64,000 nucleotides of DNA from Eledone cirrhosa (Eukaryota). Shown in pieces: positions 16,801-62,740 of the stretch; the first letter of the stretch is position 1, and every line of letters begins with the position of its first letter. The stretch lies in assembly GCA_964016885.1 (NCBI GenBank), contig OZ024741.1, forward strand, positions 71,982,001 to 72,046,000. Reading direction: 5' to 3'. A program made the translations under genes and the position numbers. The notes under the pieces were generated by a model, which saw only the letters and a list, made by a program, of their open reading frames with translations, searched no databases and had not been told where the DNA came from.

Positions 16801-16975
16801 ACATCATTGTTTAACATCTATTTCCATGCTAGCATGGGATAGAGAGGTTGTCCTATTAGAGGCAAGTTGGGTCAGGTGACCATGTCTTGCTAATATAGGA
16901 CTGTTTCTGGCTAGATTTCTACGGCTGGATGCCCTTCCTAATGCCAACCACATTTACAGTGTGTGCTGGGTGCTT
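16801..16975 (-). mobile_element. RTE-type 3' tail that seeds the 48-bp array
   Basis: catcattgtttaac..ccatgctagcatggg..ggatgcccttcctaatgccaaccacatttacagtgtg runs directly into the first array unit. Confidence 0.8.
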
Positions 16976-19200
16976 TTTGTTGTGACTCCTAAACGATCCC
17001 CTAACAGTGTGTGCTGGGTGCTTTTTGTTGTGACTCCTAAACGATCCCCTAACAGTGTGTGCTGGGTGCTTTTTGTTGTGACACCTACACGACTAACTTA
17101 CAGTGTGGGCTGGTTGCTTTTTGTTGTGACACCTACATGACTACCTTACAGTGTGGGCTGGTTGCTTTTTGTTGTGACACCTACATGACTACCTTACTGT
17201 GTAGGCTGGTTGCTTTCTGTTGTGACACCTACATGACTACCTTACAGTGTGGGCTGGTTGCTTTTTGTTGTGACACCTACACGACAACCTTACAGTGTGT
17301 GCTGGGTGCTTTTTGTTGTGACCCCTACATGACTACCTTACTGTGTAGGCTGGTTGCTTTCTGTTGTGACACCTACATGACAACCTTACAGTGTGTGCTG
17401 GGTGCTTTTTGTTGTGACACCTACATGACTACCTTACTGTGTAGGCTGGTTGCTTTCTGTTGTGACATCTACATGACAACCTTACAGTGTGTGCTGGGTG
17501 CTTTCTGTTGTGACACCTACATGACTACCTTACAGTGTGGGCTGGTTGCTTTTTGTTGTGACACCTACACGACAACCTTACAGTGTGTGCTGGGTGCTTT
17601 TTGTTGTGACACCTACAGGACTACCTTACAGTGTGGGCTGGTTGCTTTTTGTTGTGACACCTACATGACTACCTTACAGTGTGGGCTGGTTGCTTTTTGT
17701 TGTGACACCTACACGACAACCTTACAGTGTGGGCTGGTTGCTTTTTGTTGTGACACCTACAGGACTACCTTACAGTGTGGGCTGGTTGCTTTTTGTTATG
17801 ACACCTACTCGACTATCTTACAGTGTGGGCTGGTTGCTTTTTGTTGTGACACCTACACGACTAACTTACAGTGTGGGCTGGTTGCTTTTTGTTGTGACAC
17901 CTACACGACAACCTTACAGTGTGGGCTGGTTGCTTTTTGTTGTGACACCTACATGACTACCTTACAGTGTGGGCTGGTTGCTTTTTGTTGTGACACCTAC
18001 ACGACAACCTTACAGTGTGGGCTGGGTGCTTTTTGTTGTGACACCTACAGGACTACCTTACAGTGTGGGCTGGTTGCTTTTTGTTGTGACACCTACACGA
18101 CAACCTTACAGTGTGGGCTGGTTGCTTTTTGTTGTGACACCTACAGGACTACCTTACAGTGTGGGCTGGTTGCTTTTTGTTGTGACACCTACACGACAAC
18201 CTTACAGTGTGGGCTGGTTGCTTTTTGTTGTGACACCTACAGGACTACCTTACAGTGTGGGCTGGTTGCTTTTTGTTGTGACACCTACACGACAACCTTA
18301 CAGTGTGGGCTGGTTGCTTTTTGTTGTGACACCTACTCGACTATCTTACAGTGTGGGCTGGTTGCTTTTTGTTGTGACACCTACATGACTACCTTACTGT
18401 GTAGGCTGGTTGCTTTTTGTTGTGACACCTACATGACTACCTTACAGTGTGGGCTGGTTGCTTTTTGTTGTGACACCTACATGACTACCTTACTGTGTAG
18501 GCTGGTTGCTTTTTGTTGTGACACCTACTCGACTATCTTACAGTGTGGGCTGGTTGCTTTCTGTTGTGACACCTACTCGACTATCTTACAGTGTGGGCTG
18601 GTTGCTTTCTGTTGTGACACCTACATGACTACCTTACAGTGTGGGCTGGTTGCTTTTTGTTGTGACACCTACACGACAACCTTACAGTGTGGGCTGGTTG
18701 CTTTTTGTTGTGACACTACTCGACTATCTTACAGTGTGGGCTGGTTGCTTTCTGTTGTGACACCTACATGACTACCTTACAGTGTGGGCTGGTTGCTTTT
18801 TGTTGTGACACCTACATGACTACCTTACTGTGTAGGCTGGTTGCTTTTTGTTGTGACACCTACATGACTACCTTACAGTGTGGGCTGGTTGCTTTTTGTT
18901 GTGACACCTACATGACTACCTTACTGTGTAGGCTGGTTGCTTTTTGTTGTGACACCTACATGACTACCTTACAGTGTGGGCTGGTTGCTTTTTGTTATGA
19001 CACCTACTCGACTATCTTACAGTGTGGGCTGGTTGCTTTCTGTTGTGCCACCTACATGACTACCTTACAGTGTGGGCTGGTTGCTTTTTGTTGTGACACC
19101 TACATGACTACCTTACAGTGTGGGCTGGTTGCTTTTTGTTGTGACACCTACATGACTACCTTACAGTGTGGGCTGGTTGCTTTTTGTTGTGACACCTACG
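16955..19200. repeat. 48-bp tandem minisatellite, about 46-47 units
   Basis: Unit ttacagtgtgggctggttgctttttgttgtgacacctacatgactacc with a few recurring variants; one 1-nt deletion near 18716. Confidence 0.97.
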
Positions 19201-21423: not shown

Positions 21424-22489
21424 CATATGTGTATATTTATATATATATAAATAAATCAGTTTGTAAATCTTAATTTATCCTTTTAATTAAGTCTTGTGAA
21501 CCTTATCTTTAGTCAGTATTCGCTTCACCCTGGCAGTTTTTGTCCCTTGTAATTTGAACACACACACACACATATATATCAGAATGGAAGCGGTAAAATC
21601 CGTTAGACGTACTCGATATTTGGGGTAGTAAAGTGGGTAAAATGAAAAATTCACGACCTCGACGGCTGAGCTCCTGCCGTTTCAACAGCCGGATCCGATC
21701 TAGCTGTTGTTTTTGTGTGTCACAAAAAAAAGATGGCGTAGGACAGAACAAAGGAGAGGCACAAAACAAAGAAAAGAATCCCCAGTCAGTGAAGAGGTCA
21801 CAGAATGTGTGACGAAAGAACTTTGACAATATATGAACAACCGTCCGGTTATGGAACCAACCAACCAACCAACCAACCAACTGGAAATTTATAAATTTAA
21901 TTTATAATAAATTGGAGTGAAAGCAACTGGTGCGTGTGTTTCTTATTGGCAACATGACCCTCCCAAAGCATAACTATATATATATCTCATCATCATCATT
22001 TTACGTCCGCTTTTCCCTGCTTGCAAGGGTGGGATGGGAACTGATTCTGGCTTGATTTCTACAGCTGGATGCCCTTCCTAACACCAACCTCATTTACAGT
22101 GAGTGCTGGGTGCTTTTTTGCCATGGCACCTCCACGACCACTTTGCAGTGGAATGATATGGACCCCAGTCCCTATCATCTCATTTCTACAGCTGAGTAAA
22201 CTGGAGCAATGTGAAATAAAGTGTCTTGCTCAAGGAAACAACACATCACCCGGTCTGAGAATTGAACTCACAACCATTCGATTGCAAGCCCAATGCTCTA
22301 ACTACTAAGCCATGTGCCTCCACTAATATATATATATAAATATATATCTGTACATTCATGTATACATACATACAATACTTAAAATACTCTTCAGTTTAAT
22401 GTTTTTAATCCAAATTTTCTCTGTTACTGTTTGGCATGGAATGATGGAGTCAGGGTGGATAATATTGTCATTGGTGGATGTCATTAATT

Positions 22490-27886: not shown

Positions 27887-28362
<476 letters not shown>

Positions 28363-28517
28363 TATATATATATACTAACACTTTGTCCTTTTTATTATTA
28401 GTATTACACTCTGCTTAGTACAACACCAATATACCTACTAGAAACTACACATCGAGTGCCCACCCTGGTGAACCTACAGTAACTGGACATTACAATCCCT
28501 AAATATATATATATATA

Positions 28518-28826: not shown

Positions 28827-28881
<55 letters not shown>

Positions 28882-28924
28882 TTATTAAAATATTAAAGAT
28901 TTTAGTCTTCAAATTTATTATTAT

Positions 28925-28967
<43 letters not shown>

Positions 28968-30678: not shown

Positions 30679-31437
30679 CTGAATTCATCCGCCAAAAATA
30701 AGGGTTGCCTCCCTTGTCGAGCCCCACGTGGGTATTGGTAACGGTCAATCCTTGGCCTGGCACTTGAACTAAAAGCCTGTTGAGAAAGTGACTTCCTTGT
30801 TCAATCATCTTACCAGAAGCCTAACATTATTTGTCTAAGCGGACAGTACTTGATTTAGAAGTCGCAGAAACCCAAATGCTGGATTTTTACCAACCATCCA
30901 GGGGTCCGGGTAAATTTTTCAATCATATTTTTTTTATTTGTTTGACCCGAATTACTTGGTCGTTTCTATGGCTGTGCGGATAATGGTTTAACCATCGTCT
31001 CAGTGTGTTTGGCCTTTTAACGTATGTTGTAGCTCTGGTTCGTTAGAATTATTGAGCGCTTGCCACACATCTCGGAAGTTGTTTTTCGCTAATTTCCAAA
31101 GCCGAAATACGATTCTCGCTAATTTATATTTGTATATATATATATAGTCTACCACCCATATACAGTCCCTCTGACACACTTCATAAAAAACAATATCCTA
31201 TTATTAAAAGGAGGTTGGCTAGACCAAGAAATTTAGATATTTGCAAGACTTAAATGGTTTTAGAGGTGTTATGGCTTTCTTCACTCTCCAGGGATACCTT
31301 ACCAAATTTTTCAACTATTATTTATAGCGGTTGACTATTACTATGGTTATATCTGTGATGGGATGACTACATTTCAAATTTTCCCAATGTGTCTTAAGTG
31401 AACAGGTGTTTACATACACACACACATATATATATAT

Positions 31438-32818
31438 ATTTATTAAAATAACAGATTAAAGTTTAAGCAAAGAATCGCTGCTTTCACCCTTAACGGGATC
31501 TTCTGAAACTAACAAAGTCAATCTGTAAACACAGAAGTGGATATTTCAAAAAACGTTGCAACCGGAGGAAGACAGGAAGACGATACTTTGGTTCGTGGAA
31601 ACGTTCGTTAGCTCCCACATCAAGACGTAAAATATCCGCGTATAAATCGTACTATCCGTTAGGGTATAACGTGGGGCTGTAATACAGGAAAGTTTTGTGC
31701 AATTTATGTTTACAAGCCGAAATTGCCTCAGATTTTTTGTTTAAGATGTGGTCTGTGGCGTAGAGTATTTCCAGGGCCTCAGTGGCGCAGAGGTCACATG
31801 GTCTTTTATTTCCGTTATACGATCTAGCCCTAGCTAGGATCTCCCAGTGTAACATATTGGGTGTGGTTGTCTTTTAGACTCCAGATATAAGCTGAAAGTG
31901 ACGTCATATTCCTTCTTGGAGGGTAGCGAAAAGAATGGGTATGCATGTAAAGACGCTGCTTGAATCTATTGGCGGTTAACCCTATGTAGGCCCTATGGGA
32001 CGTGGGTGTTACAACCTTACATTTGTAGACAATGTTACTAGAGAGGCATTTCCCGGATAGTGGGCAATCAACCCAATTCCTACAATTACAGTTAGTACTA
32101 ACTACAGGGTTGCACGTGTTCCTACGGCTAGGTAGTTTAGCTAAATTAGAAGCTGTGATGTTATGTGCAAAGTTAGGAGTCGTAGAGTAAGAAATTTTAA
32201 TAGTATTTCTATTAAAAATTTTACTATACTTATGTGTAGGGGGAAAATGCTTCGTAATAAGGGAAAGAAAGATCTTAGCTAATGGTGTGGCCACCTCCAT
32301 ATTATATGGTGGGTTATACCAACAAATGCGACGGGATCTATTTCTTCTAGGTCTATTTTCGTACTCTGTATATGCTACCTTATCGACAAATCCACTTTGA
32401 GCAAGAGCTTCATTGTAATAAGTGGAATGGTCGTTGAAAATACGCTCGTTGGTGGAAAGACGGGAAAGCCTCAACGAAACGTTTCTTACCAGGTTCTTGG
32501 TTATGCTGGCAGGATGGTTGGAATGCTTACTTATGTAATTAAGCGTATCATTCGGCTTTCTATACGGGTAATACAACCCATTCATTAAATTGAGGGTAAC
32601 GTCGAGGTAATTAACGACCGAGAGATTGGCCTCAACCTGTATAGAGAGGTTGAAGCCTTTAAAGAAGGCTGTGAGTTCTTTTCTGAACCTGTCGCAAGCA
32701 CGAGGTCCGCACTTAGTCATGGTCAAAAGACCATCGTCACGGTTCTTATATATTTGATATATATTTATCCTTATCGAGCCCTCTTTGGATTTTAGTCTTC
32801 AAATTTATTATTATTACT
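31438..32818 (-). mobile_element. Penelope-like element copy 1: 5'-truncated, spliced 3' region, short inverted tail
   Basis: Frame starts at RDDG (RT catalytic motif, ~32731-32741), then VNYLDV, YRKP, WYNPPY, Cys linker and GIY-YIG domain (IVYKC..YIGLT..FKQR..H); 32741-32818 is an inverted copy of the element's terminal tail; flanked by (TA)n. Confidence 0.92.
31652..32741 (-). pseudogene. PLE RT-thumb and GIY-YIG endonuclease ORF with one frameshift
   Basis: ORFs 31830-32726 and 31652-31855 join by a frame change near 31855 (QY / LHWEILARARSY..CDLC..E). Confidence 0.88.
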
Positions 32819-32820
32819 AT

Positions 32821-32863
<43 letters not shown>

Positions 32864-35701
32864 CAGTTTAATACTGTCTTTAAATCAATAAAACTCACAG
32901 CAACCAGTGAAGTTTGATATGTTCCACTGGGTAACTTGTTCAATAAAAATGAGCAGGAAATACACCGTACTTAAAAAAAAACATGTATGGGTTGGTGCTA
33001 GGAAGGGCATTTCTGTCTCAGAAAGTCTCATCGACCCATGTTAGCACAGAAATTAAAAGCAGATGTAAAAACAATGATGATTATAAGCCCGTGTGTTTAT
33101 AAGCTTTTGCTGTATTTTGACTACAGAAAATAGTCTAACAGGGCATATAACTCCCAATGAAAATGGAAAAAAAAATGTATTGGATGCCCATTTTTTTCTG
33201 TTATGGGGTCTTATATACTATGTTATTTCATTATTTTCTGTAGGCAAAACATGTCAAAAGCTTCTAATTTAATTTTCAAATGATGATGATGTTTAGTCTT
33301 GCTGGGAAAAATGCAGGCCACAGAAACTTTGGTAGATATGTTTAGTTTCTGATAATGAAAGGGCATTTTGACATATGAAAGAAGCAATTCAGGGCCCTAG
33401 CCTGTTTGAAGCCATACAACTGCTTCAAATGCATGTTGTTTGAGTATGCAATATAGAAGAAGCGTAAGTAATACAGCAGCACAACTGAAATAAACATCTT
33501 TAACCCTTTAGCATTCACATTACTCTATATTTACTATTGTATTTTCAAGGTAAACACTTTATCTCACATAATATTGAATCTACGAAATTTTGATATTATT
33601 TATTTTGAGAACAATACCTTCATATAAGTATGAACAGCCAATTGTGGCTGGTTTGAAAAGAAAGAGGTGATAGAATTCTGGCTGGATATGGCCAGTTAAA
33701 AACCCTCAGACTTCCTTCCACATCCCAACTTAGGCCAGGCAATCATATAACATGCACCTTCACTAACTTTTTCCCGCTAGACTTAGTCCAGGCAATTATA
33801 AAATACATACACCTTCACTACAGTTTAATCCCACTCTCTGGCCTCTCTTCTAGCCAGAAATCATCAAACACACACACCTACACTACATCAATATGACACA
33901 CAGCAACAATAAGTTCACTTAAAACTTTATTTGGGGTTACCAACATCCTATTTTTTTCTGTTTTACAGATACATAAGGCAGCAAATTAGCAAATTACTAG
34001 GGCAATGGATAAAATTCCTTATAGTATTTGTGCCAGGTCTCTGTGTTCTTAGTTCAAATCCTGTGAAGGTCAACTTTAACTTTCATCCTTTCAGAATTGA
34101 TAAATTACCAATTCAGAGCAGTGAATTGGTAGAAATGTTCAAGTCTTGCATGAGATGATGCTTTGTGGTATTTACTTCAGATCTTTGCATTCTGAGTTAA
34201 AATTCTACTTTCTATTACTAGTCTCTGTGTAGTAGGAAATAGGGTCTTTGTGACCTGGCTGATAGTAATGTGTTGATTGGAGTAACTTTGTGATCAAATC
34301 AATGCAAAAAATGAGTGGAGTTTGATCTGAAGGGGGATAAATAAACATTAGGACAGAAAATTGTTTTTGCAAACTGACGAAGTACTAGCTGTTTTCTAAT
34401 AGGGTTCTTGTAAAACCGATGGTATGGTGAAAACATCTGACATTTTGGGCCCTCAAACCCCTTCCCTATTCAGATAATTTGGAATGAAGATGGATATCTG
34501 CAAGAATGGGCCAAGTGAGTTGGACTGGCTCTTTCAGTGCCTCTCCCTCACCATCCCTCAGGGTAACAAATTTACCATTTTGTTTGCTGAGACAAGACAT
34601 TTGCATAATACCTTGTGATTTTCTTTGTTTATTATATTTACAATATATATATATGGCTTAGTGGTTAGAGCATTGGCCTTGCAATCGAAAGGTTGTGAGT
34701 TCAATTCTCAGACCGGGTGATGTGTTGTTTCCTTGAGCAAGACACTTTATTTCACATTGCTACAGTTTACTCAGCTGTAGAAATGAGATGATAGGGACTC
34801 AAGACCCTATCATTCCACTGCAAAGTGGTCGTAGAGGTGCCACGGCAAAAAAGCACCCAGCACTCACTGTAAATGAGGTTGGTGTTAGGAAGGGCATCCA
34901 GCTGTAGAAATCAAGCCAGAATCAGTTCCCGTCCCACCCTTGCTAGCAGGGAAAAGTGGACGTAAAATGAAATGATGATGATGAATGATGATATATATAT
35001 ATATATAGTAATAATAATAAATTTGAAGACTAAAATCCAAAGAGGGCTCGATAAGGAAAATATATATCAAATATATAAGAACCATAGAGCAAATATTTAT
35101 TAAAATAACAGATTAAAGTTTAAGCAAAGAATCGCTGCTTTCACCCTTAACGGGATCTTCTGAAACTAACAAAGTCAATCTGTAAACGCAGAAGTGGATA
35201 TTTCAAAAAACGTTGCAACCGGAGGAAGACAGGAAGACGATACTTTGGTTCGTGGTAACGTTCGCTGCTAGTAACATTGTCTACAAATGTAAGGTTGTAA
35301 CACCCACGTCCCGTAGGGCCTACATAGGGTTAACCGCCAATAGTTTCAAGCAGCGTCTTTACATGCATACCCATTCTTTTCGTTACCCTCTAAGAAGGAA
35401 TATGACGTCACTTTCAGCTTATATCTGGAGTCTAAAAGACAACCACACCCAATATGTTACACTGGGAGATCCTAGCTAGGGCTAGATCGTATAACGGAAA
35501 TAAAAGACCATGTGACCTCTGCGCCGCTGAGGCCCTGGAAATACTCTACGCTACAGACCACATCTTAAACAAAAAATCTGAGGCAATTTCGGCTTGTAAA
35601 CATAAATTGCACAAAACTTTCCTGTATTACAGCCCCACGTTATACCCTAACGGATAGCACGATCTATACGTGGATATTTTACGTCTTGATGTGGGAGCTA
35701 A

Positions 35702-36488
35702 GTATATGTTTTGTTTATTCCTTTACTTATTTGCATAGGTAAGTATATATTACCCGTATGTTTTGTGAAGGTATGTATACCTTCTCGTACGTATATTTGA
35801 CTGTTATAGCGTATAATTTTTACATATTTTGGTATTTAGGGATTGGCTATGTGTATACGGGAGTTTTGCGTCCGCGCGAGTGTGCAGGTTCGTACGTATG
35901 GTGGGTGTGTGTATATGTGTACTTCTTGTTTTAGTTGACTTACGTCTCCGAACATTCGTGTATTTATATGTAGGTATGCGTGTGCGCTTGTTATATACGT
36001 ATTTATTTACTTATATAATTTTATATAATTATTTATTTATTTGTACACAAGCATACACACACACACATATTTATATGTGCGTGGTTTTGTATACCCATGG
36101 TAAGGTTTTGCGTATGCTTGTGTATGTACGTATCTGTTTGCGTGTATGTATTTATTTGTTTCTATTACTTCTGTATTGTATTTATTTACTTTGTTCTTAA
36201 TTCTGTAGCGGAGATTCATTTGGTCTCCTAGTTAGAATTTTAGTCTACGATTTCTGCTATACCATTTACGTGGTTTTGTCTTTGCGTGCTATTGTTCTCC
36301 ACGCTCCACATATGACTTATTATCTTCGTTTTTTCGTTCATTGCCAGAGAACGTCTCTATGCACCACCTAAGAGAACATTAGTCTACGACCTCTTTTATA
36401 CCATAAACGTGGTTTTGTCTTTGCGCGTAATTGTTTTTCACCGCTCCTATTAATGACGTATTATTCGTTTTTTCCCGTTCTTTGCCAG
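35702..36488 (+). other. Putative spliceosomal intron retained in PLE copy 2
   Basis: Starts GTATAT, ends pyrimidine tract + CAG, and is precisely absent from copy 1 (junction gagctaa|cgaacg at ~31607 on the minus strand). Confidence 0.82.
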
Positions 36489-36585
36489 CGAACGTTACCA
36501 CGAACCAAAGTATCATCTTCCTGTCTTCCTCCGGTTGCAACGTTTTTTGAAATAACTAGTTCTGCGTTTACAGATTGACTTTGTT

Positions 36586-36636
36586 AGTTTCAGAAGATCC
36601 CGTTAAGGGTGAAAGCAGCGATTCTTTGCTTAAACT
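36586..36636 (+). ncRNA. Type-I hammerhead ribozyme-like motif in the PLE terminus (also 31460-31510 and 35117-35167, minus strand)
   Basis: agttt-CAGAAGA-tccc gttaa gggt-GAAA-gca..tgc-TT-aaact; stems I, II and III all pair; U4 replaced by A. Confidence 0.68.
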
Positions 36637-39235
36637 TTAATCTGTTATTTTAATAAATAAATATATATATATATATATATATATATGCTTATTTAGAAAA
36701 TTGTTTACAGTTAGATTCACTTCATACAGCTAACACACAGTTGTGAAGCCTGGTTTTATCAAGTGATTTGCATTAAGCAAACCTCCTGAAATGAACCCTG
36801 GTTCTACGATACTAAGCTGTTTGTTTTAAAGAGTTTATATTCACAAACCTTCAGTAACCATTCACTCTAGATTTAGACATCTTTAAATATTGTAACACTT
36901 CACAAAGGTGATGATTGGCAGAGTTGTTAGAACATTTGATAGAATGTTTTCAATATTTGTTCTGGCTCACTGCACTCTGAGTTCAAATCTGTCTGAAGTC
37001 AACTTTGTTTTTCCTCCTTTCAAGTTCAGTACTGGGGTTGATTTTCCTCTCTCTCTTTTTGTGGAAAAATCGACTGTGTTCTGACCTAGAGAAGGATGGG
37101 CTCTGTCAGGTTTAAAATGTCCAATACACGTTATGTGTCAGGACAGTGCCCTTATGACCCCATCATAGGGCTCTTTACCTTTACTTGACACTTCACAATT
37201 GCACTGTTCACCACACAAGAACAAGTTCTTTAACTAGAGTAGCCAAAATTGATTTTCAGAAATATGAAAGTGAGAAGAAAACCATAGAAAAATCTATGAT
37301 AACACAGGGTTGTTAGTTACAGGGATGATATGATTGGAGGGTAACCTGGGATAATACAGAAAATTACAAGAAAGATATATACTTGTGTCAGCATTCAATC
37401 ATGATTGATTGACCATCAATGTGGATGTTGTCAATCATCTCAAGAGCAGAGTCAAGATCAGTGACAATGAAACTTTGATTCACAATGATGCCCAGGAAAT
37501 CCTTCAGATTATGCTCCATGATCCAGTTGAAAGCATAGTTAAAAGGGTCAGAATCTTCAATGTAGCAATGAATATATGCTTATGTAAAGCTATATATTCT
37601 AATTAAATTCAACTGTTTCATAGGCAATTCATCAAAGATCAAGATATTCCAGAGTTAACCCTTTTGATAATAATTCATGCCAAACTACCTGATTCTCTAA
37701 AACAGAATCACCCATTTTATAGGGTCACTGTTTAAATTAAAAAAAGGTCCAACATCACCACAAGTATCACTACCCTCACCATTACCATCATCATCACCAT
37801 AACCACAACAACCCCTTACCACCACCACCACCACCACCACCACAACATTTTTTCACAAGAAACTTTTCATAAGTTGTGTTTATAAATATCACCTTAATTA
37901 AATAATTTTAGTAAAATTCCCCAAAATTCTTCATTAAAACCAATACATTTTACCACATTAGAAATATGGTCACCTATTTCAAAGAGTTTCTGTTAAAATT
38001 AAAATTTCCCAACATAATTTATACAAGAACCATTCCATAAGTTTACTAATATCTTAATAATGAAATAATCAACAGAAATACATTTATCTTATTAGAAATA
38101 TAGTAAGGAAAGAGCTAGCTGTTGGTAGCTCCAGTGTTGTTCCAAAACCATTCTGAAGGCAAACATTTGGAACTAACTAGTGGGGGGAGGGAGAGAGAAC
38201 AAAAACTGTGCAGTCACAAAAGCACAATAACAGGGAAAACTATGTCAATAGAGAGGAGAGGAAAGGTAAAAACAGTAGAAGGGGAGAGAGAGAAAAGGGA
38301 AGAGTTATACAAGAGATAGAATGAGATGTATGGGGCAGAAGTGACATGTGAAAAGGAGGAGGAGGAAGTGAGGAAGAGTGAGAAAAAATATGTTGAGGTG
38401 TAGAGAGATGTGACACCTGAAAAAGGAGGGTGAGGTGGTAAGGAGATTTAAAGCTGAATGTAGAATGATGCAAGGAGGGGGAGACCTGTAGAACATGGTG
38501 GGTGCGGTGGTGGTAGGGATAGTTAAGAGAAAGAAAAGAAAAAGGAAAAAAGAAAGGGGTAGAGTAGAGAAAGAAAGGTGACAGGAGTAGATAGTGGGTG
38601 TATGTGTATGTTAACAGTGTGTGTGTATAACAATATGTATGACCCCCCCCCCCCCCGGTAAGTAGGAGGGGGGTGTAGATGGAAGGCCGATATAGCAAGA
38701 AACTTCTATATTTTGGTGGGGAGGTACAGGGTGCAGTACTAATCCCTATAGATACCCCCCTCTTGACACACTTATCCCCCCCCCCCCAAAAAAAAACCAT
38801 ACTTTATTTACTAAGGTTTCTTATTAAGGAGAAAGTGGGGGTAAACTGCAGAATTATTTACTACAGACCCCACCATGCATACATACCTACCCACTAACAC
38901 ACCTACATTTATAACCCCCTACCAACCATGCCTATCCACACCCTGATATACTCACGGCTACACCCTACCCAACACCCAAGACAAAGGTTTCTTTTGGGGG
39001 AAGAAGGTGGAGATATTGCCACTACCACCATCAACACCAACACTACTACCACCACCATCATCTCCACTACCATCTCATTCAGCACACACACACCATACAG
39101 ACGCGTGTGTGTGTGAAAGGTGCATGTAGATGTATAGGTGCACACATTTACAGACCCATATCTATATGGGTGTATATGAAAACAATCATAAACTATATGT
39201 TTATATCATCATTATATACAAACATATATACATAA

Positions 39236-41695: not shown

Positions 41696-44600
41696 AGTGG
41701 TGTTGTTGGTGGTGATAGTGTTAGAGGTGGTAGTGTAGGTATTGGTGGTGGTGTTAGTGGTGGTGGTGTTGTTGGTGGTGTTAGTGGTGGCGGTGTTGTT
41801 AGTGGCGGTGGTGTTGTTAGTGGCGGTGGTGGTGTTAGTGGTGGTGGTGTTGTTAGTGGCGGTGGTATTGTTGGTGGTGATAGTGTTAGAGGTGGTAGTG
41901 TAGGTATTGGTGGTGGTGTTAGTGGCGGTGGTATTGTTGGTGGTGATAGTGTTAGAGGTGCTAGTGTAGGTATTGGTGGTGGTGTTAGTGGCGGTGGTGG
42001 TGTTAGTGGTGGTGGTGTTAGTGGTGGTGGTGGTGTTAGTGGCGGTGGTATTGTTGGTGGTGATAATGTTAGAGGTGCTAGTGTAGGTATTGGTGGTGGT
42101 GTTAGTGGCGGTGGTGGTGTTAGTGGTGGTGGTGTTAGTGGTGGTGGTGATAGTGTTAGAGGTGGTAGTGTAGGTATTGGTGGTGGTGTTAGTGGCGGTG
42201 GTGGTGTTAGTGGTGGTGGTGATAGTGTTAGAGGTGCTAGTGTAGGTATTGGTGGTGGTGTTAGTGGTGGTGGTGATAGTGTTAGAGGTGCTAGTGTAGG
42301 TATTGGTGGTGGTGTTAGTGGTGGTGGTGATAGTGTTAGAGGTGGTAGTGTAGGTATTGGTGGTGGTGTTAGTGGTGGTGGTGATAGTGTTAGAGGTGGT
42401 AGTGTAGGTATTGGTGGTGGTGTTAGTGGTGGTGGTGATAGTGTTAGAGGTGGTAGTGTAGGTATTGGTGGCGGTGTTAGTGGTGGTGTTAGTGGCGGTG
42501 GTGTTGTTAGTGGCGGTGGTGTTGTTGGTAGTGATAGTGTTAGAGGTGCTAGTGTAGGTATTGGTGGTGGTGTTAGTGGTGGTGGTGATAGTGTTAGAGG
42601 TGCTAGTGTAGGTATTGGTGGTGGTGTTAGTGGTGGTGGTGTTAGTGGTGGTGGTGATAGTGTTAGAGGTGCTAGTGTAGGTATTGGTGGTGGTGTTAGT
42701 GGTGGTGGTGATAGTGTTAGAGGTGCTAGTGTAGGTATTGGTGGTGGTGTTAGTGGTGGTGGTGATAGTGTTAGAGGTGGTAGTGTAGGTATTGGTGGTG
42801 GTGTTAGAGGTGGTAGTGTAGGTATTGGTGGTGGTGTTAGTGGTGGTGGTGGTGTTAGTGGTGGTGGTGATAGTGTTAGAGGTGGTAGTGTAGGTATTGG
42901 TGGTGGTGTTAGAGGTGGTAGTGTAGGTATTGGTGGTGGTGTTAGTGGTGGTGGTGGTGTTAGTGGTGGTGGTGATAGTGTTAGAGGTGGTAGTGTAGGT
43001 ATTGGTGGTGGTGTTAGTGGCGGTGGTGTTAGTGGTGGTGGTAGTGTTAGTGGTGGTGGTGATAGTGTTAGAGGTGGTAGTGTAGGTATTGGTGGTGGTG
43101 TTAGTGGTGGTGGTGATAGTGTTAGAGGTGGTAGTGTAGGTATTGGTGGTGGTGTTAGAGGTGGTAGTGTAGGTATTGGTGGTGGTGTTAGTGGTGGTGG
43201 TGGTGTTAGTGGTGGTGGTGATAGTGTTAGAGGTGGTAGTGTAGGTATTGGTGGTGGTGTTAGAGGTGGTAGTGTAGGTATTGGTGGTGGTGTTAGTGGT
43301 GGTGGTGGTGTTAGTGGTGGTGGTGATAGTGTTAGAGGTGGTAGTGTAGGTATTGGTGGTGGTGTTAGTGGCGGTGGTGTTAGTGGTGGTGGTAGTGTTA
43401 GTGGTGGTGGTGATAGTGTTAGAGGTGGTAGTGTAGGTATTGGTGGTGGTGATAGTGGCGGTGGTGTTGTTGGTGGTGGTGTTGTTAGAGGTGGTAATGT
43501 AGGTATTGGTGGTGGTGTTAGTGGCGGTGGTGTTGTTAGTGGCGGTGGTGTTGTTAGTGGCGGTGGTGTTGTTGGTGGTGATAGTGTTAGAGGTGGTAAT
43601 GTAGGTATTGGTGGTGGTGTTAGTGGCGGTGGTGTTGTTAGTGGCGGTGGTGTTGTTAGTGGCGGTGGTGTTGTTAGTGGCGGTGGTGTTGTTAGTGGCG
43701 GTGGTGTTGTTAGTGGCGGTGGTGTTGTTAGTGGCGGTGGTGTTGTTAGTGGCGGTGGTGTTGTTGGTGGTGATAGTGTTAGAGGTGGTAATGTAGGTAT
43801 TGGTGGTGGTGTTAGTGGCGGTGGTGTTGTTAGTGGCGGTGGTGTTGTTAGTGGCGGTGGTGTTGTTAGTGGCGGTGGTGTTGTTAGTGGCGGTGGTGTT
43901 GTTAGTGGCGGTGGTGTTGTTGGTGGTGATAGTGTTAGAGGTGGTAATGTAGGTATTGGTGGTGGTGTTAGTGGTGGTGGTGTTAGTGGTGGTGTTAGTG
44001 GCGGTGGTGTTGTTAGTGGCGGTGGTGTTGTTAGTGGCGGTGGTGTTGTTGGTAGTGATAGTGTTAGAGGTGCTAGTGTAGGTATTGGTGGTGGTGTTAG
44101 TGGTGGTGGTGATAGTGTTAGAGGTGGTAGTGTAGGTATTGGTGGTGGTGTTAGTGGTGGTGGTGGTGTTAGTGGTGGTGGTGGTAGTGTTAGAGGTGGT
44201 AGTGTAGGTATTGGTGGTGGTGTTAGAGGTGGTAGTGTAGGTATTGGTGGTGGTGTTAGTGGTGGTGGTGTTAGTGGTGGTGGTATTGTTGGTGGTGATA
44301 GTGTTAGAGGTGGTAGTGTAGGTATTGGTGGTGGTGTTAGTGGTGGTGGTGTTAGTGGTGGTGGTATTGTTGGTGGTGATAGTGTTAGAGGTGGTAGTGT
44401 AGGTATTGGTGGTGGTGTTAGAGGTGGTAGTGTAGGTATTGGTGGTGGTGTTAGTGGTGGTGGTGGTGTTAGAGGTGGTAGTGTAGGTATTGGTGGTGGT
44501 GTTAGTGGCGGTGGTGTTGTTGGTGGTGATAGTGTTAGAGGTGGTAGTGTAGGTATTGGTGGTGGTGTTAGTGGTGGTGGTGGTGGTGTTGTTGGTGGTG

Positions 44601-47600
44601 TTAGTGGTGGCGGTGTTGTTAGTGGCGGTGGTGTTGTTAGTGGCGGTGGTGGTGTTAGTGGTGGTGGTGTTGTTAGTGGCGGTGGTATTGTTGGTGGTGA
44701 TAGTGTTAGAGGTGGTAGTGTAGGTATTGGTGGTGGTGTTAGTGGCGGTGGTATTGTTGGTGGTGATAGTGTTAGAGGTGCTAGTGTAGGTATTGGTGGT
44801 GGTGTTAGTGGCGGTGGTGGTGTTAGTGGTGGTGGTGTTAGTGGTGGTGGTGGTGTTAGTGGCGGTGGTATTGTTGGTGGTGATAATGTTAGAGGTGCTA
44901 GTGTAGGTATTGGTGGTGGTGTTAGTGGCGGTGGTGGTGTTAGTGGTGGTGGTGTTAGTGGTGGTGGTGATAGTGTTAGAGGTGGTAGTGTAGGTATTGG
45001 TGGTGGTGTTAGTGGCGGTGGTGGTGTTAGTGGTGGTGGTGATAGTGTTAGAGGTGCTAGTGTAGGTATTGGTGGTGGTGTTAGTGGTGGTGGTGATAGT
45101 GTTAGAGGTGCTAGTGTAGGTATTGGTGGTGGTGTTAGTGGTGGTGGTGATAGTGTTAGAGGTGGTAGTGTAGGTATTGGTGGTGGTGTTAGTGGTGGTG
45201 GTGATAGTGTTAGAGGTGGTAGTGTAGGTATTGGTGGTGGTGTTAGTGGTGGTGGTGATAGTGTTAGAGGTGGTAGTGTAGGTATTGGTGGCGGTGTTAG
45301 TGGTGGTGTTAGTGGCGGTGGTGTTGTTAGTGGCGGTGGTGTTGTTGGTAGTGATAGTGTTAGAGGTGCTAGTGTAGGTATTGGTGGTGGTGTTAGTGGT
45401 GGTGGTGATAGTGTTAGAGGTGCTAGTGTAGGTATTGGTGGTGGTGTTAGTGGTGGTGGTGTTAGTGGTGGTGGTGATAGTGTTAGAGGTGCTAGTGTAG
45501 GTATTGGTGGTGGTGTTAGTGGTGGTGGTGATAGTGTTAGAGGTGGTAGTGTAGGTATTGGTGGTGGTGTTAGTGGTGGTGGTGATAGTGTTAGAGGTGG
45601 TAGTGTAGGTATTGGTGGTGGTGTTAGAGGTGGTAGTGTAGGTATTGGTGGTGGTGTTAGTGGTGGTGGTGGTGTTAGTGGTGGTGGTGATAGTGTTAGA
45701 GGTGGTAGTGTAGGTATTGGTGGTGGTGTTAGAGGTGGTAGTGTAGGTATTGGTGGTGGTGTTAGTGGTGGTGGTGGTGTTAGTGGTGGTGGTGATAGTG
45801 TTAGAGGTGGTAGTGTAGGTATTGGTGGTGGTGTTAGTGGCGGTGGTGTTAGTGGTGGTGGTAGTGTTAGTGGTGGTGGTGATAGTGTTAGAGGTGGTAG
45901 TGTAGGTATTGGTGGTGGTGATAGTGGCGGTGGTGTTGTTGGTGGTGGTGTTGTTAGAGGTGGTAATGTAGGTATTGGTGGTGGTGTTAGTGGCGGTGGT
46001 GTTGTTAGTGGCGGTGGTGTTGTTAGTGGCGGTGGTGTTGTTGGTGGTGATAGTGTTAGAGGTGGTAATGTAGGTATTGGTGGTGGTGTTAGTGGCGGTG
46101 GTGTTGTTAGTGGCGGTGGTGTTGTTAGTGGCGGTGGTGTTGTTAGTGGCGGTGGTGTTGTTAGTGGCGGTGGTGTTGTTAGTGGCGGTGGTGTTGTTAG
46201 TGGCGGTGGTGTTGTTGGTGGTGATAGTGTTAGAGGTGGTAATGTAGGTATTGGTGGTGGTGTTAGTGGCGGTGGTGTTGTTAGTGGCGGTGGTGTTGTT
46301 AGTGGCGGTGGTGTTGTTAGTGGCGGTGGTGTTGTTAGTGGCGGTGGTGTTGTTAGTGGCGGTGGTGTTGTTGGTGGTGATAGTGTTAGAGGTGGTAATG
46401 TAGGTATTGGTGGTGGTGTTAGTGGTGGTGGTGTTAGTGGTGGTGTTAGTGGCGGTGGTGTTGTTAGTGGCGGTGGTGTTGTTAGTGGCGGTGGTGTTGT
46501 TGGTAGTGATAGTGTTAGAGGTGCTAGTGTAGGTATTGGTGGTGGTGTTAGTGGTGGTGGTGATAGTGTTAGAGGTGGTAGTGTAGGTATTGGTGGTGGT
46601 GTTAGTGGTGGTGGTGGTGTTAGTGGTGGTGGTGGTAGTGTTAGAGGTGGTAGTGTAGGTATTGGTGGTGGTGTTAGAGGTGGTAGTGTAGGTATTGGTG
46701 GTGGTGTTAGTGGTGGTGGTGTTAGTGGTGGTGGTATTGTTGGTGGTGATAGTGTTAGAGGTGGTAGTGTAGGTATTGGTGGTGGTGTTAGTGGTGGTGG
46801 TGTTAGTGGTGGTGGTATTGTTGGTGGTGATAGTGTTAGAGGTGGTAGTGTAGGTATTGGTGGTGGTGTTAGAGGTGGTAGTGTAGGTATTGGTGGTGGT
46901 GTTAGTGGTGGTGGTGGTGTTAGAGGTGGTAGTGTAGGTATTGGTGGTGGTGTTAGTGGCGGTGGTGTTGTTGGTGGTGATAGTGTTAGAGGTGGTAATG
47001 TAGGTATTGGTGGTGGTGTTAGTGGTGGTGTTAGTGTTAGAGGTGGTAGTGTAGGTATTGGTGGTGGTGTTAGTGGCGGTGGTGTTGTTGGTGGTGATAG
47101 TGTTAGAGGTGGTAATGTAGGTATTGGTGGTGGTGTTAGTGGTGGTGTTAGTGTTAGAGGTGGTAGTGTAGGTATTGGTGGTGGTGTTAGTGGCGGTGGT
47201 GTTGTTGGTGGTGATAGTGTTAGAGGTGGTAATGTAGGTATTGGTGGTGGTGTTAGTGGTGGTGGTGATAGTGTTAGAGGTGGTAGTGTAGGTATTGGTG
47301 GTGGTGTTAGTGGTGGTGGTGGTGTTAGTGGTGGTGGTGATAGTGTTAGAGGTGGTAGTGTAGGTATTGGTGGTGGTGTTAGAGGTGGTAGTGTAGGTAT
47401 TGGTGGTGGTGTTAGTGGTGGTGGTGGTGTTAGTGGTGGTGGTGATAGTGTTAGAGGTGGTAGTGTAGGTATTGGTGGTGGTGTTAGTGGCGGTGGTGTT
47501 AGTGGTGGTGGTAGTGTTAGTGGTGGTGGTGATAGTGTTAGAGGTGGTAGTGTAGGTATTGGTGGTGGTGTTAGTGGTGGTGGTGGTGTTAGTGGTGGTG

Positions 47601-48120
47601 GTGATAGTGTTAGAGGTGGTAGTGTAGGTATTGGTGGTGGTGTTAGAGGTGGTAGTGTAGGTATTGGTGGTGGTGTTAGTGGTGGTGGTGGTGTTAGTGG
47701 TGGTGGTGATAGTGTTAGAGGTGGTAGTGTAGGTATTGGTGGTGGTGTTAGTGGCGGTGGTGTTAGTGGTGGTGGTAGTGTTAGTGGTGGTGGTGATAGT
47801 GTTAGAGGTGGTAGTGTAGGTATTGGTGGTGGTGTTAGAGGTGGTAGTGTTAGTGGTGGTGGTGTTAGTGGTGGTGGTATTGTTGGTGGTGATAGTGTTA
47901 GAGGTGGTAATGTAGGTATTGGTGGTGGTGTTAGTGGTGGTGGTGTTAGTGGTGGTGTTAGTGGCGGTGGTGTTAGTGGTGGTGTTAGTGGCGGTGGTGT
48001 TGTTAGTGGCGGTGGTGTTGTTAGTGGTGATAGTGTTAGAGATGATAGTGGTGGCATTGTTGGTGATGATAGTGTTATAGATGATGGAGCTGGTGGAGCA
48101 TGAGGTGATGATGGTATTGG
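41696..48120. repeat. GGT/ACC triplet-based compound satellite with higher-order duplication
   Basis: Modules gatagtgttagaggtggtagtgtaggtatt and (ggt)n-gttagt; the line starting at 41761 recurs at 44581 (offset 2820). Confidence 0.95.
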
Positions 48121-48879
48121 TGTTGGTTGGTGGTGGTGCAGTAAAGCATGAACCACTAAATTGCTGATGTTTATCTGTGGATATAGCTTATTAACTATAC
48201 ATACGCAAAAGCAACAACACACAGAAAGATATGTATGCACACGCATACATACATACATATACACACATACATGCACACAGACACACAGGCAGATACACAC
48301 ACATACAAACATACATATACACATATACACAGGCAGACACACACACAATCAGATACACACACATATATATATACACATGCAAACACAGCTGGTTGTGATA
48401 AACATCTTGCATTTTTCTATTGTGTACACAGTTACTAAGACACACATACATTGTAACATTGCAAACAAAAGCATACAAAGTGACACCCCCACCCTCATAT
48501 ATGTGTGTGTATACACAAACCCAAATACACACTGGCTGTATTACCTTACATACATAACACATACAACACACACACACAATTTGTCAGATGCAGAGTTATT
48601 AGCTACACACAATACTCACTTGTAATAAAAAAAAAAAAAAAAAAATAACACCTCCCCATTGACTGGTGTGTATGTGTGTATGTGTGGGTGTGAATGTGTG
48701 GGTGTGTGTGGAGGTAAATGTGTATATGTATGTCTATCAAACCCTCTCATTAAGTAGTGAATCCTCAGGTGTTAAGTAGACTATGGAGAAATGACACTAA
48801 TTAAATACACATTTAGAAGAATTGGCATAACACAAGTGTGCGTGTGAGTATATACACACACACATATATATATATAAAA

Positions 48880-52116: not shown

Positions 52117-55100
52117 CATCATCATCATCAACGTTTAACGTCCGTGTTCCACGCTTGCATGGGTTTGGACGGGGGTAGTCCCACTTGAGGCAAGAGTGAT
52201 TGTCTTGCTCGCATAGGACTGTCTGGCAGGTTTTCTACAGTTGGATGCCCTTCCTAAAACCAACCACATTTACAGTGTGGGTCTGGGAGGTTTTTACCGT
52301 GTTGCCTACACGGCCACATTACAGCGTGGACTGTGTGTTTTTTGTCGTGACACCTACACGATCTCATTTGTTTCGGCCTGGATGGCGCGGCACCAACATA
52401 ACTTTACATAGAACGGGGTGGTGTGGATGGGGTGGGGGTGGTGGCGGGACGGGGTGTAGTTTGTTAGAGATGCCTACTGGCAAGGCGGGTCTTCTCTGTT
52501 ACTGAGTACCGCCAAAGGTCACGGTCCAGTGACATTGTCTTGGAGAGGTGTAAGTGTGTGAGGTCGGAGTTTATCAGCTCATCCCATGTTTTTCTAGGTC
52601 TGCCTATTCCGTGGCTACCGTCTATCTTTATTGCCCTGCACTTTGTAATACAGCTATCGACTTTCATGCGCATCACGTGTCCATACCAACGCAGCCTTCT
52701 CTCGAGTAAACAACATCTGATCCCTCTTATCTCTAATTTTTTCCTTAGTTCGTTTATGCTTTGCCGTTCACGTATATTACTGTTACACATCCAGCGGAGC
52801 ATGCAAGCTTCGTTCCTCTCTAGTCTGCGTATATCCTCTGCACACAATGCCCAGGTCTCACTACCATGCAACATTGCTGTTCGTATGCAGGCATCGTACA
52901 ACCTGCCTTTCATTTTTAGGGAGAACCCTTTAGCAGCTAATAGTGGTATAAGCTCTCTGAACTTTTTCCAACCAGTTCTGACTCTAGCTACAGTACTTTC
53001 AGAGCACCCTCCCCCACTGCTGATTTTATCGCCCAGGTAACGGAAGCTGTCCACTATTTCTATAGAACCCTCTGCGCAATTGAAAGAGCTAGTATTTTGT
53101 GGGCACTTGCTGCTACTTATTGCACCAGAACACCGGCCACATGTAAAGTCTATGTTCTTAGTTAGCTTACCTGTGATCCCACTACATCTTTTATGCACCC
53201 ATACTTTGCATTTAGGACATAAGATGGAGTTTCTACCTACGCCTTTCCTACATACCGAGCACGACCATTTCCCAGAAGGGACCGCCGCCTTGTTTTCTTT
53301 CCTACAAACTAGAACTTTGGTCTTAGCCAGGTTAATTTTAAGTCCTTTTGACTCTAGGCCGTGCTTCCATGTTTGGAATTTCTTCTCTAGCTCGGCCATT
53401 GATTCCGCTATGAGTGTCAGGTCGTCTGCGTATAGGAGTTCCCATGGGCAGCCTGTCTTGAACTCCTCTGTTATAGCCTGAAGGGCAATAATAAATAGTA
53501 GGGGGCTGAGAACAGAGCCCTGATGGACGCCAACTTTTACGCTAAACTCTTCACTATATTCGTTGTTAATTCTAACCTTGCTGACTGTTTCTTTATACAT
53601 GGCTTGTATAGCCCTCACAAGCCATTCGTCAACGCCTAGTTTTCTAAGAGCCCACCAGATAATGGAGCGGGGGACTCTGTCGAAGGCTTTCTCCAGGTCG
53701 ACAAAAGCTAAGTAGAGGGGTTTACCTTTAGCTAGGTACTTCTCCTGTAGTTGTCGTACTATGAAAAGAGCGTCTGTGGTGCTTTTGCCTGACACAAACC
53801 CGAACTGCATTTCATCTAGATCAATTCTCTCTCTGATTAGTTGCGCTATTACTTTTTCCGTGACCTTCATGACCTGGTCGATTAATTTAATGCCTCTATA
53901 GTTACTCCTATCTAGGGCGTCTCCTTTACCCTTATAACAGTTAACGATGATGCTGCTATGCCAGTCCTTCGGAACAACCCCATTCTGTACGACTTGGTTA
54001 ACTATGCGGGTGACCATGGTGTGTCCCACCGTGCCAGATGCCTTCAGCATCTCAGCAACTATTTCCGAAGGCCCAGCCGCCTTACCAGTCTTCATATCCT
54101 TGATTGCCTTACTTATTATACTCCCCTCGACTAACACTGCTGGTCCCTCTATCGGGTCGATATGGGGGAGACTGTCTTTCTCCCATTTATTCTCCTCATT
54201 TAGTAGCCTTTCATAGTGATACTTCCAAGCTACCTTCTTATCAGTGTCGGTGATGGCAAGTATGCCATCATCGTTAAGTACACACTTCTCCCCGACAATA
54301 TCACGGTTTTCCTTGACGCATTGCCTGGCAATCCTGAACACCTCACGTTTTTGGTCATCGCGTTGTAGAACATGCTTGAACTTTCTTTCCTCAGCTTCCC
54401 TTCTTGCTAAGTACACTTCTCTCCTAGCTTCCCTCCTGGCCACTTGATAGTCTACTCTACTTCCCCCATCCCGCCATACTTTCCAAGCCTGCTTTTTGGC
54501 CTTAATTGACCCCTCCACCCTACTGTTCCACCACCATGTTACTCTCCTCCTGCCTACAGGCCTGCTCCAGCCACAGACTTCGTCTGTCGCCAACAGCAGA
54601 TTTGCTTTCAGAAATTCCCACTGTCCCTCTATATTGTCCGATTCTAGATGCTCTTCCTTACTGTCGAAAGCATCAAGTAATATGCTTTGAAATTTATTTC
54701 TGGCTGTGGGGTCCTTTAGTTTCCATATTTTCCTCCTGAGGATAGTCCTCTTCTGCTGTCGGGTACGTCTCGTCCTGACTATGAGGTCGCTAATTATCAG
54801 TCTATGTTGGGAGGTGCATTCTTCATGGGGGAGGGATTTAGTGTTTACAACAGACACTCTGTCACGTCTTCTGGTAAGGATATAATCTACCTGGCTTGTG
54901 TGTTCCCCGGATCTATAGGTAATCAGGTGATTGTCACGTTTTTTGAAGTTAGTGTTACAGATAGTTAGGTTATTTGCATCACAGTATTCCAGGATTCTGG
55001 AGCCTTCCTCATTTCTAGTACCAAACCCATAGCCTCCATGGATTTCGTCGTAGCCGTCACAATGTTGTCCAACGTGACCATTTAGGTCGCCTGCAATAAT

Positions 55101-55477
55101 TATATAGTCACTGTCAGATATTTGGGAGGTAGTTAGCAACAGTGTCTCATAGAATCTGTCTTTTATAGTGCCGGGCAGTCCGGATTGGGGTGCGTACGCA
55201 GATATTACTGTCACCGTAGTTCTATTGAGGACAAGTCTTATTTTAATTATTCTGTCGTTCACTCTATTTACGTCTATTATCTTATCTGCCCACTTTTCTG
55301 CTACCATGATTCCTACTCCACCCAGCCCATCGTCGTTTCCCACCCAGAAAAGCTTATAACATCGTTTTTTACCCTCAATGAATCTAGCAGACCCACCCCT
55401 CCACCTGGTCTCTTGAATACAACAAACATCGACCTCCTTACGTTCAAGCATTTCTACAACCTCGTTAGCGCGACCCT
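52117..55477 (-). mobile_element. RTE-clade LINE copy 2, nearly full ORF (APE + RT + PHD-like insert)
   Basis: 995-aa ORF with APE motifs (CCIQETRW, SAYAPQ, GDLNGH, VDYIL, SQH) and RT motifs; same 3' UTR and (GAT)n tail as copy 1; 5' end truncated at about KGRANEVVEM. Confidence 0.96.
52464..55451 (-). CDS. RTE LINE endonuclease-reverse transcriptase ORF
   Basis: Uninterrupted 995-aa ORF; the listed start Met is probably internal because the first APE motif is cut off. Confidence 0.93.
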   Translation of the reverse strand: MLERKEVDVCCIQETRWRGGSARFIEGKKRCYKLFWVGNDDGLGGVGIMVAEKWADKIIDVNRVNDRIIKIRLVLNRTTVTVISAYAPQSGLPGTIKDRFYETLLLTTSQISDSDYIIIAGDLNGHVGQHCDGYDEIHGGYGFGTRNEEGSRILEYCDANNLTICNTNFKKRDNHLITYRSGEHTSQVDYILTRRRDRVSVVNTKSLPHEECTSQHRLIISDLIVRTRRTRQQKRTILRRKIWKLKDPTARNKFQSILLDAFDSKEEHLESDNIEGQWEFLKANLLLATDEVCGWSRPVGRRRVTWWWNSRVEGSIKAKKQAWKVWRDGGSRVDYQVARREARREVYLARREAEERKFKHVLQRDDQKREVFRIARQCVKENRDIVGEKCVLNDDGILAITDTDKKVAWKYHYERLLNEENKWEKDSLPHIDPIEGPAVLVEGSIISKAIKDMKTGKAAGPSEIVAEMLKASGTVGHTMVTRIVNQVVQNGVVPKDWHSSIIVNCYKGKGDALDRSNYRGIKLIDQVMKVTEKVIAQLIRERIDLDEMQFGFVSGKSTTDALFIVRQLQEKYLAKGKPLYLAFVDLEKAFDRVPRSIIWWALRKLGVDEWLVRAIQAMYKETVSKVRINNEYSEEFSVKVGVHQGSVLSPLLFIIALQAITEEFKTGCPWELLYADDLTLIAESMAELEKKFQTWKHGLESKGLKINLAKTKVLVCRKENKAAVPSGKWSCSVCRKGVGRNSILCPKCKVWVHKRCSGITGKLTKNIDFTCGRCSGAISSSKCPQNTSSFNCAEGSIEIVDSFRYLGDKISSGGGCSESTVARVRTGWKKFRELIPLLAAKGFSLKMKGRLYDACIRTAMLHGSETWALCAEDIRRLERNEACMLRWMCNSNIRERQSINELRKKLEIRGIRCCLLERRLRWYGHVMRMKVDSCITKCRAIKIDGSHGIGRPRKTWDELINSDLTHLHLSKTMSLDRDLWRYSVTEKTRLASRHL

Positions 55478-55916
55478 TGCTAATTGTATTATCATGCTAA
55501 TTAAACAATTATAGCTCTTATGAAATCAAATGACAATTTGCAAACATTTTAATAAGGAATTTAAATGTCAAGTTCGGTAAATATTTCCAACACTGAAACT
55601 CAAAGATAATCAAATGATTATCAAGAATGGCAGTTTCTCCTTCAATACACTTTGAAATTTCTGTCAAGTTAAAATATGTTACCATATCTTTAATGAAAGA
55701 CACTGCCTACAATTTTAAAATAAGCATGAAAATAATCAAGAATTTGGAAAGATTTAGTAATGCTGTTGTTTGGAACATAACTAAAGAAAGGTTCTTAAAT
55801 AAAGTTATAATGGAAAATTTTTAGAACCAGACAGATGCTGTTTCAGGCAGTTTGGTATCAAATGGATCAACAAAACATGAAGCTTTAAGACCAAGGATAT
55901 AGAAACTTAAGTTTAA

Positions 55917-62294: not shown

Positions 62295-62740
62295 ATATTA
62301 ATAAGAGGAATTCCAACCTTGTCTGATTTACTCGTTTTATTTACAATCCTTTAAAATTTATAATGGTATTATAATGAAATAGTATGATAGAATATTAAAT
62401 TCTAAGTGTTAATTGAACAAGTACTTTCATGCTTTCGCAATCTTCAGGTTCATAATATGTGGTGACAGTCAAGTTTGCAATTTTCAACTTTCAACCAAGA
62501 GATGTTTGGACAGTTGAAAATTGCAAACTTGACTGTCACCACATATTATGAACCTGAAGATTGCGAAAGCATGAAAGTACTTGTTCAATTAACACTTAGA
62601 ATTTAATATTCTATCATACTATTTCATTATAATACCATTATAAATTTGAAAGGATTGTAAATAAAACGAGTAAATCAGACAAAGTTGGAATTCCTCTTAT
62701 TAATATAATCTTCTATACACAATCATACACACCCGTGTAT
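62295..62740. mobile_element. Fold-back insertion with ~195-nt arms and a 22-nt spacer
   Basis: 62295-62489 versus 62512-62706 near-perfect inverted repeat next to (TA)n; hammerhead in each arm. Confidence 0.8.
62549..62587 (+). ncRNA. Minimal type-I hammerhead ribozyme (mirror copy 62414-62452, minus strand)
   Basis: tgaac-CTGAAGA-ttgc gaaa gcat-GAAA-gtac-TT-gttca; canonical CUGANGA/GAAA core and palindromic stem III region AAGTACTT. Confidence 0.8.

Follow-up and report, generated by a model that had tools for sequence, protein, structure and literature searches.

Copies with and without the pLTR intron of a Penelope-like element in the genome of Eledone cirrhosa

A 64,000-nt stretch of the Eledone cirrhosa genome (assembly GCA_964016885.1, contig OZ024741.1, positions 71,982,001 to 72,046,000; hereafter the window) contains two 5′-truncated copies of one repeat family, placed head to head with 2.2 kb between them. 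One of them holds a segment of 787 nt which the other lacks. The question raised by this locus is whether the segment is an intron that was removed from RNA before the RNA was copied into DNA and, if so, which template the element uses, given that most copies in the genome keep the segment.

The two window copies and the element to which they belong

The features of both copies are collected in Table 1. Copy 2 reads GGGAGCTAA|GTATATG...TTTGCCAG|CGAACG on the + strand. In copy 1, on the − strand, the same two sides are joined at 31608/31607, without exactly the positions 35702-36488 of copy 2. The preliminary description of the window had stated that the difference is bounded exactly by GT and AG with a pyrimidine tract, and this was borne out: displacing the cut by 1 to 5 nt in either direction never reproduced the junction, so that a single breakpoint is possible and there is no microhomology at this join (D1). 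The two copies differ at subfamily markers, and are therefore separate insertions from different sources; one source shared by both is ruled out by these markers. The source of copy 1 is likely to have had an intron of ~790-797 nt with a GTATGT donor.

Table 1. Coordinates of the two copies and of their features in the window
Feature	Position	Strand	Remarks
Copy 1, whole	31436-32823	main arm −	
Copy 2, whole	35005-36660	main arm +	
Copy 1, main arm	31436..32743	−	5′-truncated RT/EN coding part, then spliced pLTR; stops at fixed end T1 in (TA)n tract
Copy 1, joined junction GCTAA|CGAACG	31607..31608	−	donor D1 joined to acceptor
Copy 1, inverted short arm	32739..32823	+	stops at fixed end T2, 88 nt beyond T1
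Copy 2, inverted arm	35005..35267	−	from T2 back to last intron bases (CAG)
Copy 2, main arm	35268..36660	+	GIY-YIG coding end, unspliced pLTR; stops at T1 in (TA)n
Stop codon of element ORF	35655..35657	+	44 nt ahead of donor D1
pLTR intron, 787 nt from donor D1	35702..36488	+	donor GTATAT in copy 2; GTATGT in about half of copy 1 lineage
Donor D2, TAG|GTAAGT	35739..35744	+	main donor among spliced genomic copies; 264 joined matches, 2782 unspliced
Donor D3, AAG|GTATGT (other subfamilies: GTACGT)	35771..35776	+	99 joined matches
Acceptor AG, pyrimidine tract before	36487..36488	+	common to all donors; 7291 intact matches
Hammerhead-like motif	36586..36636	+	97 nt past acceptor; Hydra layout; A at invariant core U4
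Rare 2-bp frameshift deletion site	35444..35465 (copy 2); 31844-31865 (copy 1)	+ (copy 2); − (copy 1)	6 matches genome-wide, 2 in window

Despite their different subfamilies, the two window copies have one 2-bp frameshift deletion in common, present in 6 copies genome-wide. The likely origin of this shared deletion is local conversion of one neighbour by the other, along a tract of ~135 nt at most; recurrence is a possible one.

Several other features were noted in the window. A minimal footprint of the element lies between simple repeats at 28878-28930, where the T2 end contributes ~33 nt and the T1 end, fused to it, ~18 nt, and the 3′ part of the intron (~36235-36495) contains two imperfect direct repeats of ~125 nt, ~79% alike. 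Two LINE-type copies at 2828-5314 and 52464-55496 (−), 96.6% alike, have matches to RT and AP endonuclease, with a weak PHD-finger match after the RT, and the remnant of an LTR retrotransposon, matching RNase H and an integrase zinc-binding domain, is found at 7117-7977 (+). Spurious long ORFs are produced by a 48-nt minisatellite in 47 copies (16954-19199) and by a 6.4-kb GT-rich low-complexity array (41697-48138). Copies of a tRNA-derived SINE-like repeat are located at 34633-35003, 21975-22372 and 27970-28374, one of them adjoining copy 2, and a near-perfect palindrome of 414 nt at 62294-62707.

A longer natural copy (L028) contains a single ORF of 708 aa. Its structure was modelled with a pLDDT of 92.7, and the six best fold matches are telomerase RTs. 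YRDD is invariant in 103 of 103 aligned homologues, as are both Y and G of a predicted C-terminal GIY-YIG endonuclease (IVY...YIG). Pfam and PDB sequence searches with the element ORF gave no match, PF01541 being matched on the top homologue only. The marks given for the Hydra clade in section 11 of PMC8557442 are DKT, RWK, a CxCX5C linker, and CxxC and CxH around E and N, with no CCHH. The corresponding residues of the element are DKT, RWR, C566-C568-C574, C661/C664, E667, N680 and C689/H691, and CCHH is lacking as well. Across the 103 aligned sequences, CxCX5C, CxxC, E, N and CxH show little or no variation, and 94 of them have DKT; the RWR of the element is RWK in 74 of the 103 homologues. 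The Penelope-like build is present, with partial tandems forming pLTRs, an inverted 5′ arm and a tail, and (TA)n tracts are found at the ends of both window copies and of most loci inspected. The element is a Penelope-like retrotransposon (EN+) having the motifs of the Hydra clade.

The unit measures ~3.26 kb, with a pLTR intron of 0.75-0.8 kb. The position first proposed for the intron, downstream of the stop codon and just upstream of a hammerhead, is correct for the window copies (44 nt after the one, 97 nt before the other), but in two respects incomplete. In tandem copies the segment that follows the stop codon recurs ahead of the ORF, with the ATG ~300 nt past the acceptor, which makes the intron a pLTR / 5′ UTR intron. 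The hammerhead core, in addition, is substituted, with CAGAAGA where CUGANGA is expected (U4A). Compared by eye, the stem layout fits that of Hydra in File S2 of PMC8557442; an Rfam search gave 8 weak matches, none of them a hammerhead, and RNA folding did not predict the hammerhead as the lowest-energy fold (z 0.75, −0.46 and −0.62). CAGAAGA recurs across the copies inspected and is thus a family trait, and the motif would correspond to an inactive or variant hammerhead.

Junctions at the pLTR intron across the genome

Counting the genomic copies with the exact junction, a check proposed in the preliminary description, showed that the D1 join recurs, with 9 exact matches genome-wide. When up to 3 mismatches were allowed, 11 of 15 matches were D1 joins; they occupy 10 loci, one of which is duplicated in inverted orientation together with its flanks. 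D1 is nevertheless a minor donor: joins to the shared acceptor amount to 264 for D2, 99 for D3, 11 for D1 and 8 for a further donor, D0. In total at least 382 of 7673 pLTR arms (~5%) are spliced, against 7291 intact acceptors (~95% keep the intron), the junction counts, made per arm from exact patterns, being lower bounds. The general statement that Penelope-like elements (PLEs) retain their introns is therefore valid for this one. An initial ratio, 9 against 1921, was set aside, since D2- and D3-spliced copies are among the 1921.

The joins involve four GT donors (D0 to D3) and two AG acceptors, with the features of spliceosomal GT-AG introns: a GT donor, a pyrimidine tract, an AG acceptor and precise removal. 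An exception class was found at 3 loci, where the join GGGAG|CCAG has no GT and has a 3-nt microhomology. As a control for scatter, we used the exon-2 starts whose third upstream base is not C (723 matches). The first 100 listed, all on one contig, were counted by hand and comprised 43 D2 joins (2 of them doubtful), 15 D3 joins, 40 unspliced copies with small changes, 1 inversion and 1 join from a likely mutated D0. Rather than varying from copy to copy, the breakpoints of 58 of the 60 non-intron joins among these first 100 of 723 fell on two GT donors.

Joins were also sought in sequencing data. Reads aligned to a tandem copy show other joints to the same acceptor, the D1 joint being absent among the 15 listed of 124 joints. 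D2 and D3 joints were recovered in the contigs of run X1, possibly the data from which the assembly was made, as well as in raw reads of DNA run X24 (3 and 1 reads), a different sample. Ten further organism codes (runs X5-X14) had 0.21-0.51 of the sampled words, and X8 gave 31 records.

Donor and acceptor choice varied with subfamily. D0 (GTG|GTAGCT) is confined to the subfamily with G as the first base of exon 2, and each of the 8 D0 joins is of the G-form; an interpretation of these 8 GATGTG|GGAACG joins as microhomology deletions was rejected, since the G subfamily has a canonical donor there. One lineage marker is carried by every D1 arm that includes the marker site (10 of 10). Of the 106 copies of this lineage, the first 100 were counted by hand, and 53 had lost 2 nt, D1 then being GTATGT. 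A second rare marker is common to copy 1 and three D2 copies showing this loss. At the other end of the intron, another lineage has a new AG, 4 nt ahead of the acceptor, in 6 of 9 intact arms, and its marker is carried by the 3 C-form joins to this upstream site. For 3 G-form joins to the upstream acceptor, no AG-bearing intact counterpart was found in the arms sampled. On the whole, junctions follow new GT or AG sites that are particular to a lineage, the behaviour expected of a spliceosome.

We considered whether DNA deletions, RT jumps or assembly errors could have fallen on GT..AG by chance. The 3 loci with a non-GT join and microhomology might be of this kind, and the intron ends at D2 resemble each other (TTTGCATAG and TTTGCCAG). 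Such an origin is nonetheless scarcely credible for the joins as a whole, in view of the absence of microhomology at D1, the concentration of 58 of the 60 joins (first 100 listed) on two donors, the lineage-specific donors, and the presence of joins in unassembled data.

The D1-to-D2 interval (window 35702-35744) is itself a 37-nt GT..AG segment, and D2, TTTGCATAG|GTAAGT, looks like a recursive splice site. Recursive splicing via TAG|GTAAGT at D2 was considered; no D1-to-D2 intermediate was found among 100 listed copies of one lineage.

How many times splicing was captured was approached with a tree of 123 arms out of 200 found, the others covering too few columns. D2 and D3 arms sit on several haplotypes beside unspliced arms, and spliced versus unspliced states require 14 changes. 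Splice state is clustered on this tree (18 changes for the U label, versus 41 when shuffled), the support of which is weak. Subfamilies differ markedly in their yield of spliced copies. The copy 2 subfamily accounts for 1730 of the 7291 intact acceptors, yet for 2 of the first 100 D2 joins (p 1.5e-9), and D2 joins were seen in 3 of the 12 examined among its 36 non-CAG starts; the copy 1 lineage gave 32 D2 joins per 100 listed copies. The spliced share is thus ~0.5-2% in the former and about a third in the latter. From its short branches in the arm tree, we infer that the copy 2 subfamily is the youngest.

These differences could mean that splicing was captured only a few times, intron-less copies having then acted as sources of most joined copies, including both arms of inverted insertions. 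The clustering of splice state by subfamily and the uneven spliced share are in keeping with such a history, as is the common lineage of the D1 copies, which may have had one origin. Against it, several junction types are found together with unspliced copies in each subfamily, and each main junction in several subfamilies, so that at least about eight separate captures would be needed; donor use, moreover, tracks donor sequence. Few captures followed by amplification of intron-less sources are, overall, unlikely.

Inverted insertions, tandems and the RNA template

In 75 of 101 inverted junctions, each outer end coincides with one or other of the fixed points T1 and T2, which are 88 nt apart. 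All but two of these 75 combine one T1 and one T2 end (73, of which 39 and 34 by longer arm); in the remaining 2, T2 is used twice. The splice state of the two arms agrees in 34 of the 34 inverted insertions that could be classified, 18 being unspliced and 16 spliced. Six of the 16 spliced concordant insertions had been chosen as pairs; the other 10 belong to loci selected without regard to pairing. A single cDNA that folds back on itself does not account for the inverted arms in general, because the short arm extends further 3′ in 39 of 73 cases.

Arm concordance would follow trivially if intron-less copies were the sources. The pLTRs placed directly ahead of an ORF do not favour this, as 99 were unspliced and 1 spliced among the first 100 of 169 listed. 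The exception, L224, is a tandem in which the 5′ pLTR is D2-spliced, the ORF region complete and the 3′ pLTR unspliced; it is a single case, and its 5′ end is rearranged. A separate locus, C2:273376169-273382686, shows six closely spaced pLTR-to-ORF junctions, some ~409 nt apart, which suggests a short tandem array of the element start.

Joined copies could also be obtained if elements already inserted lost the intron by recombining with cDNA made from spliced RNA. Local exchange of sequence between copies may occur, as the shared 2-bp deletion indicates, and L224 could be explained in this manner. Both arms would however need the same conversion every time (16 of 16), and junctions agree with the flanking subfamily markers on both sides, so that we hold this process to be highly improbable.

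The hundreds of precisely spliced genomic copies show that the element copies sense RNA on at least some occasions. How PLE introns persist through the RNA step was left open between an antisense and an unspliced sense template in the relevant passages of PMC3846280. With the antisense model proposed there, most copies would come from an unspliceable antisense template and only the spliced minority from sense RNA, in line with the ~95% of arms that keep the intron. We consider this division improbable: spliced and unspliced insertions have identical ends, two in number, and the same inverted build, and L224 holds both splice states in one tandem.

Intron-less copies probably arose by reverse transcription of sense RNA that was already spliced, the RNA being mostly captured unspliced and read from two starts; this interpretation rests on comparisons of genomic sequence. 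The preliminary description had suggested that both RNA isoforms were reverse transcribed and integrated. Both forms do seem to have been copied into the genome, but the two window copies, being of different subfamilies, are not isoforms of one source.

The template would be a sense RNA that reads through the ORF and the pLTR into the beginning of the following unit, and that is taken up for the most part while still unspliced, probably within the nucleus. The enzyme, which is likely to be a dimer, would begin cDNA at both fixed points of one RNA molecule, and the resulting pair of truncated cDNAs would be fused head to head at a cut (TA)n tract. Whether the intron is retained would depend on timing and splice-site strength, not on an antisense template. 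Intron-less source copies may contribute, and would give concordant arms too. A more general scheme can be put forward tentatively, although we lean slightly against it in full: every insertion would derive from a single nascent sense RNA, copied twice from two fixed points, the genome would record alternative splicing (four donors and two acceptors, shifting with single-base changes), PLE intron retention would reflect capture before splicing, and the most recent subfamily would have evolved to be caught spliced far less often.

Relation to known systems

In processed retrocopies made by LINEs, splice junctions are fixed in DNA by reverse transcription, and splicing is the rule. The spliced copies described here are, in contrast, a minority within an element that normally keeps its intron. 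The element likely copies its ordinary, partly spliced RNA, which bears on the point left open in the field; in PMC8557442, at least in the part concerned with PLE introns, these are said to be of 'significance unknown'. No report of spliced genomic PLE copies was found in the PLE literature searched, which included parts of PMC11722881 and of bioRxiv 10.64898/2026.07.22.740005, the 2003, 2005, 2006, 2007 and 2017 papers of Arkhipova and colleagues being outside its reach. The splice state shared by two arms is a natural tag for the way in which the inverted structure is made, and both the arm-tag and the spliced-copy tests are applicable in any genome with many PLE copies.

With the Hydra clade, as described in passages of PMC8557442, the element shares a C-terminal GIY-YIG, DKT, RW(K), CxCX5C, CxxC and CxH, the lack of CCHH, (TA)n targets and the hammerhead layout. 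It differs by its ~3.26 kb unit, its 0.75-0.8 kb pLTR intron and its U4A core, and the passages on Hydra describe no intron or spliced copies. The hammerhead sequence given there for Hydra-1_Obim is different, which makes the latter another family. Chlamys-3_cRei, from the same source, also has a 5′ UTR intron, with alternative isoforms of 398 and 751 bp; its endonuclease is N-terminal, and in the passages concerned its isoforms are seen in RNA, not in genomic copies.

Closer in intron position is Penelope of Drosophila virilis, which has a pLTR / 5′ UTR intron just before the hammerhead, and for which spliced and unspliced RNA both exist, according to portions of PMC2377424 and PMC4209133. 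Its intron is of 75 nt with one donor, and genomic copies are described there as retaining it, whereas several donors and ~5% of spliced copies are found here. Finally, Poseidon PAc of Anolis, in the sections of PMC11167929 that describe it, resembles the present element by two RT start sites that define the tail and by AT-rich targets; two internal RT starts were obtained with it in vitro, and a dimer is predicted. The PAc starts lie inside the ORF, with a tail of the 30-40 bp kind, whereas those of the Eledone element lie before the ATG, 88 nt apart.
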